64,000 nucleotides of DNA from a phage. Positions within the stretch are counted from its first letter, which is position 1, and every line of letters starts with the position of its first letter. The position numbers were made by a program, and so were the translations under genes. The notes below the pieces were generated by a model. That model searched no databases, was not told the origin of the DNA, and saw only the letters and a program-made list of their open reading frames with translations. Shown piece after piece: positions 57,189-62,070 of this stretch. The stretch lies in the sequence record PV805632.1; one strand, written 5' to 3'.

Positions 57189-58799
57189 TCACACAATGTA
57201 TGAACGTAGTGGGTTAACACTATCTTCTTCTTCCTCATCCCACATTGGGTCACCCTTGTTATCCACCAAAGTCATACCTGCTTGTGGTTTCCAAGGATTG
57301 AGATAACCCAGCATGGAGATAGTATCAATACAGTCATCCTTACCTTTAATTCCATTAATGGTAGCTAGTTTAATCTGGCCCATGAACAGACCCATAATAG
57401 TTGTATCTCTCAACTCTTCCGGGAAGTACATCTTACCAGCTTTGAACCATGGAACTACCAGGTTGAAACGTGACAGTTTAGAGGTTACAGGACGGATGCC
57501 TGGCTTACCACCCTCAGAGGATGCAAAGTTAAAGAAGACATTACGGTTAATCATTTCTTTCTGAAGGAGTGAAATGAATCCACCCTGCTGTCCTGTAATT
57601 TCAACACCAACGTTTTGTGGTTGGTATTCCTGAACCAGACGGAACAAGTCGTCGAAGTTCTTATCCATAAGCTGACGATTAGCCACACCATCAACCCAGA
57701 ACCAATCTCCATTAGAACTGTAAGCCCAAACTGATATGACACTATAGTCACTAGTCTGTTTCTCCGAAGTAGCAAAGTCAGTTGTAATGTAATAGTTATA
57801 GCAAGACTTCATCCTTAACAATTGCTGCCTGCTATACCATTTAATCTCACTATCCTGAACAAGACGTTCATCTTCAGAACTAATACGAAGCATAAGTTCC
57901 TGGTAGAAGCCAGCCAACTTACCAGTCTTAACTGCCATGTCGTATTGGGCTTTAATGTAGTCATACGAGAAACGGTCATCCCATGCACCTTGAAACTCTT
58001 CTCTACTACAAGGGAACTTCTCACACACAGGCCATACGTTGACATCCCATGCACCGGACTCTACTGCTTCAATGATAATGTCTTCCTTATTAAAGGGAGT
58101 ACCATTGAAAATTACTTTACGACGTGTTGGGTCAAGAGCATGGTTCACACCTTTATAGACAGTATCCTTAATAGCTTCCATGCTTGTCTTAGAGTTAGCA
58201 TCACCATCACTAATCAAGTCATCCAGTACACATAGTGTCGGACGTTTACCGTATATCTTCGTACCACGAAGACCAGTCTTGGCACCAAACAGTTTAACCC
58301 CTAGGCGATGACCTTCTGCATTACGAAACTCTAACAGGTTATCTGTAAAAATAGCTTCGGGTATCCACTGCTGAAGGAACTCACTATTCTTGTATCGGAA
58401 CTCAATGTTCTTACGTGCAGACTTAGCACCGTTATCCATTGAGTCAGATACGTAAATCATTCCTTCTACTTTACCAAGACTTGGTAAATGCCCAAACACT
58501 GCCAAGAACAAAGTAAAGTATTCCATGAACACAGCAGTCTTACCTGCACCACGGAAACACAGGTTAACTACATACTGATTCGGGGTAATCATCTTATCCA
58601 ACATCTTCAGGTGAACTGGGGGTGTTTTGTTGGATTCACCCTCTTTACCATTAACCAACTTAATAAAGTTGGCAAAGGTAAGAGCAAACTGACTAGGAAC
58701 ATAGTTAGATGAATTAAGGTGGGAGTAATCCACCTGGTCTAGCCATTCATCTAGTTCCTGTTTAATTAACTCAGACATCTGTAATGTCCTCATCTGCAC
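57189..58799 (-). CDS. terL: terminase large subunit
   Basis: Walker A GAGKTAVFM, Walker B-like LCVLDDLISD, C-terminal nuclease-like region; 536 aa. Confidence 0.85.
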   Translation of the reverse strand: MQMRTLQMSELIKQELDEWLDQVDYSHLNSSNYVPSQFALTFANFIKLVNGKEGESNKTPPVHLKMLDKMITPNQYVVNLCFRGAGKTAVFMEYFTLFLAVFGHLPSLGKVEGMIYVSDSMDNGAKSARKNIEFRYKNSEFLQQWIPEAIFTDNLLEFRNAEGHRLGVKLFGAKTGLRGTKIYGKRPTLCVLDDLISDGDANSKTSMEAIKDTVYKGVNHALDPTRRKVIFNGTPFNKEDIIIEAVESGAWDVNVWPVCEKFPCSREEFQGAWDDRFSYDYIKAQYDMAVKTGKLAGFYQELMLRISSEDERLVQDSEIKWYSRQQLLRMKSCYNYYITTDFATSEKQTSDYSVISVWAYSSNGDWFWVDGVANRQLMDKNFDDLFRLVQEYQPQNVGVEITGQQGGFISLLQKEMINRNVFFNFASSEGGKPGIRPVTSKLSRFNLVVPWFKAGKMYFPEELRDTTIMGLFMGQIKLATINGIKGKDDCIDTISMLGYLNPWKPQAGMTLVDNKGDPMWDEEEEDSVNPLRSYIV

Positions 58800-59460
58800 G
58801 TACTAGTTTAGAACCAGCAATCTCTTTAGTAGGTACACCACTATTGATTGCATTAATTTGCTGTTCAGCCAATGCAGCAAGCGTTGCCTTGAGGTCAGTC
58901 AACCCAGAGTTTTCTCTTAAGTCCAGATTGATATTCGTTACCTGATCTTTCGGTTTAGCTAAGTGGGTAAGGATAGAGTTAGCTGCATCACATCTTACCT
59001 TCTCACTTACCGCTGTAGTCATCAGTTCAACCTGAACATTGATTGCCTTCTGATAGTTGTCTTGGTTCACAATCCACACCGGAACCAAACTTTGTTCCAT
59101 GATGAGGTTAACTAACTTACCTCTGTGATAAGCAGATACGTAAGCACTAATATCTTTCTCACTGGTTCCTCGAGCTACAAGTTCTGCTTGTCGGTTAGGG
59201 AATGTTTTGAAGTAGGCTTCCTTATTTGAATAGCCCATGTGTTTGTAAGTCACATACTGAACTGCATTCATGTAGTCCTGTGTCTTAAACTTACCCTCCT
59301 TCATAACACCAGAGTAAGAGATGAAGTTTTCACGGAATGCTTCAGCAACCAGTTGGTCTTGGGTTATGTTGTTAATCGTGTCTACCAACTCCTGGCTTAC
59401 ACTGTTCTTGAAGTTAGCAGGTAAGGCATTAATGATCTGCTGCTTAGTTAGCTCTCTCAT
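58771..59460 (-). CDS. hypothetical protein upstream of terL (possible small terminase subunit)
   Basis: 229-aa ORF overlapping the terL start; positional guess only. Confidence 0.35.
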   Translation of the reverse strand: MRELTKQQIINALPANFKNSVSQELVDTINNITQDQLVAEAFRENFISYSGVMKEGKFKTQDYMNAVQYVTYKHMGYSNKEAYFKTFPNRQAELVARGTSEKDISAYVSAYHRGKLVNLIMEQSLVPVWIVNQDNYQKAINVQVELMTTAVSEKVRCDAANSILTHLAKPKDQVTNINLDLRENSGLTDLKATLAALAEQQINAINSGVPTKEIAGSKLVRADEDITDV

Positions 59461-60805: not shown

Positions 60806-61102
60806 ATGCACCTGTACTGCCTGATTAGCTATGCCACTACCTGTTATCTATCCCCGTATACAATGGATAATATCCTGGCAGGTAAGGGGAGTGTTGCCAC
60901 CATCCTATATGAACCAAGTGAAGAAGCAGAAGTATTCCTGGGTACTTGCTTAATACTGGGGCAACCTATCCAGTTCATTAAGATAGTGGATTCTGTGGAA
61001 ATACCGGAGCACACCTGTGTGTACATACTGTCTGATAAAGAACCTATGGTAGCTACTACTCTTACAGGTAGACTCATTACCCGAAAGCTCCCTCCTATTT
61101 AA
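60806..61102 (+). CDS. small early protein, paralog family member 4 (more diverged)
   Basis: motif SEEAEVFLGTCLILGQ. Confidence 0.4.
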   Translation: MHLYCLISYATTCYLSPYTMDNILAGKGSVATILYEPSEEAEVFLGTCLILGQPIQFIKIVDSVEIPEHTCVYILSDKEPMVATTLTGRLITRKLPPI

Positions 61103-61128
61103 CTGCTTATAAGTGAGATAGCTATAAT
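61099..61128 (+). promoter_or_regulatory. candidate sigma70-type promoter
   Basis: TTAACT (61099-61104), 18-bp spacer, TATAAT (61123-61128); by-eye match only. Confidence 0.3.
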
Positions 61129-61206
61129 ATTTTTGCATGTCAAAAATGTGATAGTTATGTATGGCTACAGTGGTGTGGCTAGGGCTACACCCTTACACGT
61201 TAACTA

Positions 61207-61220
61207 CCCCCCCCCCCCCC
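61207..61220. repeat. homopolymeric poly-C tract (14 nt)
   Basis: CCCCCCCCCCCCCC read directly from the sequence. Confidence 0.9.
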
Positions 61221-61326
61221 GGTATGTTGACTCATGGGTGTACTACCCTACCCCACCTTACACGTTACACGTTGCTCCGCAACTTATGGACATGTCGTCC
61301 TATCATCAACTATTGGAGCTATCATC

Positions 61327-61650
61327 ATGACTACTACCGCTACTGTACGTATGACCGCAGGAACTCTGCTGGGTACTGTTAACTCTGCTGCTACTACTGT
61401 TGCAGATTCATTCGGTGCTGCTACTAAAGCAGTTGGTATGCTTAATTCTTACGTAGCTACTATGGCAAAGAAACAAGCCATTCGTACTAAATTAGAAATG
61501 CATACTTTCGAAAACAAATTAGCTGAAGAAACAGCTATGAACGAGACTATGCGTAAGAAAAGTATCGAAGAATTCTGCAAAGATCCAGAAAACGCTCGTA
61601 TCTACAACGCAGAATATTCAAGAATAATTGACATCCTGTCTAAAGACTAA
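61327..61650 (+). CDS. hypothetical protein
   Basis: ATG 61327 with GGAG 8 nt upstream; the longer track ORFs run through the poly-C tract. Confidence 0.45.
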   Translation: MTTTATVRMTAGTLLGTVNSAATTVADSFGAATKAVGMLNSYVATMAKKQAIRTKLEMHTFENKLAEETAMNETMRKKSIEEFCKDPENARIYNAEYSRIIDILSKD

Positions 61651-61653
61651 ATC

Positions 61654-61680
61654 AATAGGAGGCTCTTCGAGCCTCCTATT
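61654..61680. promoter_or_regulatory. perfect 12-bp stem / 3-nt loop hairpin (terminator or hairpin-type promoter)
   Basis: AATAGGAGGCTC-TTC-GAGCCTCCTATT immediately after a stop codon; no U-tract. Confidence 0.5.
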
Positions 61681-61740
61681 AAGGGCATTAGATAGATAGA
61701 TAGTCAGTTCTGTATAAAAAGATAGGAGAGATACCTACTA

Positions 61741-61886: not shown

Positions 61887-62070
61887 AATGTCCCTGAATC
61901 TAAATCACCGTAAGAATCTCTGGATATCTTACATACCCTAAAAGACAACGACGCTCCGCGTCTTATGGATGATGTAAATGCATCCACTAATCATTGAAAT
62001 TTTATCCTTTTGTTTGGGTGTTCTCACCGACGAGTTCACCCGTAAATCACATAAATCTGGAGAGTACAAA

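Follow-up and report, generated by a model that had tools for sequence, protein, structure and literature searches.

The window, a stretch of 64,000 nucleotides (nt) of phage DNA (sequence record PV805632.1), is by its sequence a Gamaleyavirus genome (G7C-like, N4 family, Schitoviridae) assembled in circular permutation. The region considered here, 61103-61326, contains a tract of 14 cytosines (C14) and is probably the physical left end of this N4-like (G7C-type) genome, enclosed within the circularly permuted assembly. The surrounding 1.8 kb matches 59 phage records, all of them N4-like and almost all Gamaleyavirus, and the closest record is G7C with 96% identity across the region. The gene that follows the region is a homologue of gp1, the first early gene of N4, and the large terminase gene (57189..58799, minus strand) lies 2.4 kb away. 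The N4-like matches, the gp1 homologue and the position of the terminase indicate a linear genome with direct terminal repeats in a circularly permuted assembly. The main features of the locus are as follows.

61174..61176: predicted left end of the virion DNA and left boundary of the direct terminal repeat, placed by homology to mapped ends
61176..61585, plus strand: probable direct terminal repeat of about 410 bp, present as a single copy in the window
61207..61224, plus strand: C14 tract and GGTA, the C(n)GGTA box of the family, expanded from the usual C7
61271..61283, plus strand: P1, putative virion RNA polymerase (vRNAP) hairpin promoter GTTGC-TCC-GCAAC (stem 61271-61275/61279-61283, heptamer GCTCCGC at 61274-61280)
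61288, plus strand: predicted +1 of the gp1 transcript, a G (template C) that lies 11 nt downstream of the loop centre and 39 nt upstream of the gp1 ATG
61327..61650, plus strand: gp1 homologue (phrog_5020, E = 5e-44; ribosome-binding site GGAG at 61315-61318)

Left terminus and direct terminal repeat

The left ends of four relatives (G7C, IME11, Mimir124, and N4) were mapped independently, and all of them align to 61174-61176, so that the boundary of the terminal repeat falls inside the region. The G7C record starts at its mapped left end, with nt 1 aligning to 61176, and the G7C ends were verified by Sanger run-off sequencing (PMC11640937). For IME11, high-throughput sequencing gave an accumulation of read starts at GTGGCTGGGGCTACACCC and at one position to each side (PMC3896407); the pile-ups GTGGCTGGGG, TGTGGC, and TGGCTG correspond to window positions 61175, 61174, and 61176. 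The annotated start of the direct terminal repeat in Mimir124, which is derived from PhageTerm, aligns to 61175, and nt 1 of the N4 record (TGGTGGGGCTACAC) aligns to 61176. Homology thus predicts a precise left end at a fixed sequence position. An earlier sequence-only reading of this DNA had offered a packaging-associated region as one of several possibilities, and the alignment of the four mapped termini agrees with it.

The left ends of N4, G7C, IME11, and Mimir124 (Enquatrovirinae) are colinear with the window, at about 73% for N4 nt 1-153 and about 94% for G7C over 61100-61330. They have in common the terminus position, the C-tract, the CCCTACCCCACC box, the YACAC repeats, P1, the TTATGGA start region, and gp1. 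One difference lies in the tract: N4 has 9 C, G7C and most others have 7, and the window has 14. The locus is of an already known kind, as the left end, the terminal repeat, and P1 are well characterised in N4 itself.

The right boundary of the repeat in IME11 and Mimir124 is located inside the 3' part of gp1, at about 61585 of the window, and for IME11 the read that marks this boundary (reverse complement CGAAGATTTCTGCAAAGATT) ends at 61585 when aligned. Positions equivalent to 61584-61594 are also where many GenBank relatives have been linearised. The repeat of the window probably also ends near 61585, judging from IME11 and Mimir124; this boundary is uncertain, and G7C annotates a longer stretch. 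In N4-type phages the left end is precise and the right ends are variable (PMC5557969; PMC3896407). Repeat lengths are given as 401 bp in IME11 (read pile-ups), 401-403 bp in Mimir124 (PhageTerm; locus L009 1576-1978), and 390-440 in N4, and the G7C record has 1160 bp annotated as 'contains terminal repeat' (L002 1-1160; L001 2278-3437). The repeat length of the G7C type looks inconsistent between records despite the common left boundary.

Conservation of the C-tract

C14 occupies 61207-61220, as the sequence-only reading had it, and is the sole C run of at least 7 in 64 kb. With independent and identically distributed (iid) letters, 3e-5 runs of at least 14 are expected. That reading had also called long homopolymers rare in compact phage genomes, which holds for the window. 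The rarity makes conservation of the tract more telling and points to a family-wide element, not an accident. The tract is found at the aligned position in all 22 GenBank relatives fetched, including N4, Moovirus, and Kaypoctavirus. It consists of C7 in 19 of them, C8 in NAN33P5, C9 in N4, and C11 in K57alpha1.2.

A more distant sample comprises 80 IMG/VR loci (1.08 Mb) around terminase homologues of 67-100% amino-acid identity. C runs of at least 7 occur there 52 times in the plus-strand orientation of the window and 5 times in the opposite one, and the iid expectations are 65 and 46. Against these expectations, homopolymers are otherwise strongly avoided in the metagenomic Schitoviridae loci. 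The canonical context surrounds 44 of the plus-orientation runs, six have a variant context, and two are unrelated. Among the 50 sufficiently long loci, 43 have a run of at least 7, which lies 0.9-3.9 kb past the start of the terminase gene. Of the other seven, five show C6 in the same context, so that 48 of the 50 carry at least 6 C. The metagenomic lengths are 6, 7 (the clear mode), 8, 9, 10, and 13, to which K57alpha1.2 adds 11 and the window 14.

An alignment anchored on the tract was made from 39 non-redundant contexts whose flanks are otherwise unalignable. Positions +1 to +4 after the tract are G (0.95), G (0.95), T (0.87), and A (0.72), and before it A is found at -1 (0.69) and T at -2 (0.41). 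The alignment also contains a (G/C)ATAGYTA box at about -55, YAGTG at about -40 to -35, CACCC at -18 to -15, and a CCCC core at +30 to +34 (up to 0.85).

The distance of the tract from the terminus is nearly constant. In four records that begin at mapped ends, the first C of the tract is nt 32 (N4 and G7C), nt 29 (LUZ7), or nt 30 (LIT1). The last two, Pseudomonas phages from another subfamily, are otherwise unalignable, and their ends were determined by run-off sequencing. LUZ7 has GGTACT-C7-GGTGG with the tract at nt 29-35, and LIT1 has GGTTAT-C7-GGTACC with the tract at nt 30-36. The YAGTG motif precedes the tract by 39 nt in most lineages. In LUZ7 and LIT1, with records that open at (T)CAGT, the interval is 28 nt, and the CAGT-to-tract distance is thus shorter by about one helical turn. 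As judged by these comparisons, the tract is throughout the family an obligatory cis-element of 6-7 C or more, on the same strand and almost equally far from the terminus.

The variant contexts consist of Cn followed by TGTCTTT, or of aactat-Cn, and resemble N4. A sub-lineage (L071, L072, L074, L084, L086, L092, and N4 nt 32-40) has C7-C10 followed by TGTCTTT or ATGTAG, with no GGTA. In its metagenomic members the tract is only about 0.9-1.3 kb beyond the terminase gene. The variant without GGTA may be the same element with a different partner specificity. Two further departures concern the flanks. L044 (IMG/VR) has C13 and a replaced upstream flank, with cttaaaaaatttgtt instead of cttacactatgagta, and in PD205 (L025) an inserted 26 nt separates the P1 hairpin from the YACAC repeats. 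The insertion and the replaced flank indicate that the terminal module tolerates local rearrangement.

Length of the tract

The tract of the window differs from that of G7C by a 7-nt indel and from those of other relatives by 3-8 nt, and it is non-coding. The tract length can expand by slippage, to 8-13 C elsewhere and 14 here. The sequence-only reading had considered an assembly artefact. This does not apply to the tract itself, which is real, although the extra seven C's could be one. A miscall, or a mis-join of collapsed repeat copies, would mean that the true length is about 7, and this explanation has an appreciable, if minor, chance of being right. The number 14 is exactly twice the mode of 7, and G7C, which is 96% identical, has 7. 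Moreover, the tract lies 31 nt from the physical end inside a collapsed repeat, where coverage changes abruptly, and beside the read-start pile-up. Long-read and some short-read assemblies often contain homopolymer errors (PMC10438801). On the other hand, the flanks are clean and colinear with G7C, and independent assemblies are also expanded, with C9 in several, C10, C11 in K57alpha1.2, and C13 in L044.

The 7-nt indel between G7C and the window indicates that the stretch occupied by the terminal module is non-coding. Open reading frames (ORFs) 61133..61330 and 61161..61382 and a 5' extension from 61234 were rejected as coding because the indel lies inside them. Several GenBank relatives annotate hypothetical proteins across the module, namely Bas96_0088 (L010 1534-1632) and one in Mimir124 (L009 1665-1775). 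The K57alpha1.2 record (L012) has a 'DNA primase' pseudogene across it, and L019 627-872 is also annotated.

Early promoter P1 and the sigma70-like pair

The hairpin at 61271-61283, which the sequence-only reading had missed, consists of a 5-bp stem and a 3-nt loop and is followed by TTATGGA. The vRNAP promoters of N4 have a GC-rich heptamer centred at -11, inverted repeats, and a 3-nt loop, and the template bases recognised are A/G at -11, G at -10, G at -8, and C at +1 (PMC4496689). Stems of N4-type promoters measure 5-7 bp, and initiation by the injected polymerase resists rifampicin and depends on gyrase and SSB. The template strand of the window reads 5'-GCGGAGC-3', giving -8G, -9C, -10G, -11G, and -12A, so that all reported vRNAP determinants are present. 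A second copy of the promoter stands before the homologue of N4 gp2, as listed here.

61950..61962, plus strand: second putative vRNAP hairpin promoter GACGC-TCC-GCGTC, followed by TTATGGA, upstream of the gp2 homologue, with a predicted +1 at G61967
62071..62454: homologue of N4 gp2, downstream of the second hairpin promoter

These two (61271 and 61950) are the only full copies of the hairpin promoter in the window. With the start-site spacing rule of N4 (PMC4496689), the non-template +1 is G at both sites (61288 and 61967), and hence the template base is C. Both hairpins are the minimum-free-energy fold of the template strand in DNA folding, and P1 has -3.7 kcal/mol. The likeness to P1-P3 of N4 extends to the heptamer at -11, the 5-bp stem, the 3-nt loop, -8G, -10G, the purine at -11, -12A, +1C, and a left-end location ahead of the gp1 and gp2 homologues; here it is known from sequence, in two copies. 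The P1 loop is TCC (template GGA) in the window and G7C, and TTC (template GAA) in N4, which has an equivalent hairpin AGAAGC-TCC-GCTTCT before its gp2.

Pairing is maintained among the relatives. In aligned relatives the P1 stem is GTTGC/GCAAC or CATGC/GCATG, with two compensatory pairs and a fixed heptamer. An equivalent hairpin (stem of at least 4 bp, 3-nt loop) is present in 29 of the 39 distant contexts, compared with a shuffle mean of 3.2 (maximum 9). The loop centre of these hairpins lies at a median of +56 after the tract, G stands at +11 in 24 of the 29, and at least 10 different stems occur with loops that are mostly TCC or TTC. Since this distant set was selected for pairing, the unbiased evidence consists only of the shuffle control and the compensatory pairs of the aligned relatives. 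The element at 61271-61283 corresponds to N4 promoter P1, and gp1 is expected to be driven by it rather than by a sigma70 promoter.

An IMG/VR exact-pattern scan with GCTCCGCAACTTATGGA found, besides G7C, three contigs (L003, L004, and L007). They were discarded as chance matches in coding DNA that lack both a stem and a tract close by. Immediately downstream of the gp1 stop, at 61652-61682, there is a perfect hairpin with a 12-bp stem (AATAGGAGGCTC-TTC-GAGCCTCCTATT). A terminator scan scores it as terminator-like on the minus strand only, where a T-run follows. N4 has a comparable hairpin after gp1, and G7C has a different sequence there with an extra promoter-like hairpin, AACGC-TCC-GCGTT.

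The sequence-only reading had listed a sigma70-like promoter upstream of gene 61327, and its candidate is present.

61099..61128, plus strand: sigma70-like TTAACT-18-TATAAT, in unique DNA outside the repeat; the -35 overlaps the stop codon of ORF 60806..61102

The pair matches the consensus at 10 of 12 positions. The 1.3-kb region has six such matches, as against 3.7 +/- 1.9 in shuffles. Among 21 aligned relatives the -10 is TATAAT in 6 and TATCAT or TATGAT in 10. The pair lies about 160 nt upstream of the predicted vRNAP start. A role in driving gene 61327 is not supported: the motif is at background and outside the repeat, and the vRNAP hairpin promoter has its start 39 nt upstream of the ATG.

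The same reading had suggested a variable regulatory region upstream of gene 61327, which could be taken as a phase-variable slippage switch for that gene, driven by this sigma70-like pair. The variability stands, with tract lengths of 6-14 among relatives, and regulation does not, as the tract lies in no promoter spacer or coding region. The 10/12 match and the TATNAT kept in most close relatives speak for the switch. However, the tract follows the sigma70-like -10 by about 80 nt and precedes the predicted start site by 68 nt, in the stretch that separates the genome end from P1, and so is outside both the -35/-10 spacer and the coding frame. The motif itself is outside the repeat and hence not on the same molecule end as gp1 in virion DNA. 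Early genes of the N4 family are read by the virion RNA polymerase from hairpin promoters, of which a canonical one is present. In addition, the 7-C mode across very distant phages points to a selected lower length bound, not to an on/off state. Such a switch is very improbable. The tract is similar to homopolymer contingency loci in being a long G/C homopolymer whose length differs between close relatives. It is unlike them in lying outside any frame or promoter spacer, in keeping a minimum length family-wide, and in being tied to a DNA end, not to a gene.

Other repeats and boxes of the terminal module

The remaining elements of the module and of its outer border are the following.

61124..61161, plus strand: conserved blocks ATAATATTTTTGCATG and then GATAGTTATGTA, just outside the repeat, found by alignment
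61168..61172, plus strand: CAGTG, the YAGTG motif beside the cleavage position, found by comparison of lineages
61182..61198, plus strand: terminal block GGGCTACACCCTTACAC, with the first two YACAC repeats and the CACCC box (-18..-15 from the tract)
61246..61257, plus strand: C-rich box CCCTACCCCACC, with the CCCC core kept at +30..+34 after the tract
61257..61273, plus strand: CTTACACGTTACACGTT, YACAC repeats 3 and 4 (tandem ACACGTT)

The stretch 61176-61270 is C-rich, at 41% C. The direct repeats that the sequence-only reading had listed are all in place. CTTACACGTTA occurs at 61192-61202 and 61257-61267, where the second copy runs into the tandem ACACGTT (61260-61273), and GGCTACA occurs at 61163-61169 and 61183-61189. 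CTTACAC alone is unremarkable, with four copies in the window for 4.4 expected. YACAC is enriched 13-fold in the equivalent module of the 39 non-redundant relatives compared with the rest of each locus, and this family-wide YACAC array explains the CTTACAC and ACACGTT repeats. CCTACCCCACCTTGT in the C-rich box is common even to the Pseudomonas phage LIT1 and N4.

Outside the repeat, ATAATATTTTTGCATG and GATAGTTATGTA are kept across Enquatrovirinae; the latter, as a (G/C)ATAGYTA box, is seen again in distant metagenomic relatives, about 55 nt ahead of the tract. The blocks at 61124-61161 may belong to the cleavage signal as its outer half, or may act as a middle-promoter element. In LUZ7 (L029 620-660) and LIT1 (L030 615-655) a G-rich stretch stands before the right repeat boundary, and its GGGG is 6-12 nt from the cut. 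The 5'-ending strand of these two phages is thus C-rich when read inwards from either end. The coliphage right boundary, inside gp1, has no such G-rich feature.

A cruciform or hairpin formed by the palindrome GTTAAC-TACC[Cn]GGTA-TGTTGAC was rejected, as folding (z = -0.5 and +0.6) is no better than in shuffles. The shuffle-level folding and the weak conservation of the upstream arm compared with GGTA make double-stranded recognition more likely than a hairpin. For a G-quadruplex or i-motif on the C-rich strand, about 30 nt would have to be looped out between the usual C7 and the distant C4 boxes.

Comparison with T7-like ends

A similar arrangement is present in Autographiviridae. T7 has C5-ATAG-GGGG at nt 26-38, T3 has GTA-C8-ATAG at nt 23-37, SP6 has C4-ATAGGG at nt 29-38, and phiKMV has C5-GTAGG at nt 26-35. 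These phages therefore share a same-strand C4-8 with RTAG, 26-38 nt from the mapped left end and in the terminal repeat. Short direct repeats surround the tract in both cases, of the CCTAAAG type in T7 and of the YACAC type here. T7-like and N4-like phages are also both short-tailed, with exact left ends and T7-like RNA polymerases. In contrast, there is no homology beyond the C run, and the flank is RTAG in one group and GGTA in the other; this is a resemblance and not membership. The T7 pac site consists of PacB and PacC, and the small terminase recognises PacB (PMC9860248).

No description of the motif was found in the searchable open literature, where the literal strings CCCCCCCGGTA and TACCCCCCCGG and those of N4 and T7/T3/SP6/phiKMV were included in the search; older subscription papers lie outside this scope. 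This negative result covers both a family-wide conservation of the tract near the end and its T7-like counterpart.

Proposed function of the C(n)GGTA box

The terminus placed by homology, the anatomy of the promoter, and the conservation, strand bias, and spacing of the tract are established at the sequence level. The C(n)GGTA box is most likely part of an end-recognition or packaging signal that sets the precise left-end cut; the protein that binds the tract and the effect of its binding are what we infer. Virion DNA would start at about 61175, and the repeat would run rightwards to about 61585. Its first 110 bp would form a conserved terminal module, with YAGTG at the cut, YACAC repeats, the C-tract and GGTA about 31 nt in, the CCCCACC box about 30 nt after the tract, and P1. 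The box would be read as a double-stranded signal by the packaging or end-processing machinery, and the cut would be placed a set distance away. After injection, the virion RNA polymerase would read P1 and begin the gp1 transcript at G61288.

As is expected of a terminase site, a conserved sequence (C(n)GGTA in the 39 contexts) stands at a fixed distance from the cleavage position across relatives. A candidate for the small terminase, by position, is a 229-aa protein (58771-59460, minus strand) directly upstream of the large terminase gene and homologous to N4 gp69. It has no match in Pfam, and in PHROGs it matches only phrog_2109, of unknown function.

Several points weigh against recognition of the box by the packaging machinery. 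A subgroup that includes N4 itself has no GGTA after the tract, and the protein 58771-59460 beside the large terminase has no recognisable family. The tract length ranges over 6-14, although a complex that touches its two flanks in helical register ought not to accept such variation. Either the distance is set from one flank alone, or the tract works in another way. A roughly constant distance, about 50-57 nt, also separates the tract from the P1 hairpin, and a role in early transcription or injection fits this spacing equally well. No paper linking the tract to terminase was found in the searchable literature.

The spacing to P1 suggests that C(n)GGTA and CCCCACC might anchor the leading end after ejection, bound by an ejection protein or by a non-catalytic domain of the vRNAP. 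A topological domain would then be closed between the free end and the tail, in which gyrase would supercoil the first ~500 bp and extrude P1. The early promoters of N4 do need gyrase-driven supercoiling of the first ~500 bp entering (PMC4496689). A free linear end cannot hold supercoils, so that a constraint within about 95 bp to the left of P1 is logically required. The conserved boxes fill exactly the interval between the end and P1, a promoter only about 100 bp inside the genome. The hairpin also keeps a fairly constant distance from the tract (median +56), and the promoter at 61950, P2, which is further inside the genome, has no such tract. Nevertheless, an anchor is purely inferential, and LIT1, with its nearest hairpin at +102, departs from the spacing. 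In T7-like phages a comparable C-tract stands equally far from the end, and we know of no supercoiling requirement for T7-like early promoters. As a sole explanation, an anchor is unlikely. The T7-like parallel favours a packaging or virion-related role and the constant tract-P1 spacing an anchor role, and both could be true.

The fixed position near the terminus on one strand would also suit a replication element, either a priming or initiation site or a polymerase pause for duplicating the repeat from concatemers. G/C homopolymers are sites of polymerase slippage and pausing. Terminal repeats are thought to be made by extension synthesis from staggered nicks (PMC5557969). In contrast, the module is C-rich, and no iterons with an AT-rich unwinding element are evident in it. 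The searched literature does not place the N4 origin here. Phages with terminal repeats solve end replication through concatemers, and a terminal primer site is unneeded. A replication element is accordingly quite unlikely.

The packaging signal and the anchor can be combined into one tentative proposal, which in this full form has only a modest chance of being correct. C(n)GGTA, YACAC, and CCCCACC would form an undescribed 'end module' of Schitoviridae with a T7-like counterpart. A virion or packaging protein would bind it about three helical turns from the end, set the left cut, and then hold the leading end for gyrase supercoiling and P1 firing.

Implications

The region would be the true start of the genome and not an ordinary intergenic spacer with a host-type promoter, and no ORFs should be assigned to it. 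Genomes of the G7C-like group are better linearised at about 61175. The tract is also a likely source of assembly and indel errors in therapeutic-phage genomes. The value for annotation is ordinary, but the comparison singles out, in two major podophage families, a small cis-element of the genome ends that can be tested. One homopolymer per genome, on the same strand and about 30 nt from the end, offers a small mutable target for the definition of the left end. For N4-like phages, the tract gives a way to ask how the first-entering DNA becomes supercoilable. The combined proposal, if true, would explain how the N4 virion polymerase obtains a supercoilable template from a linear DNA end.

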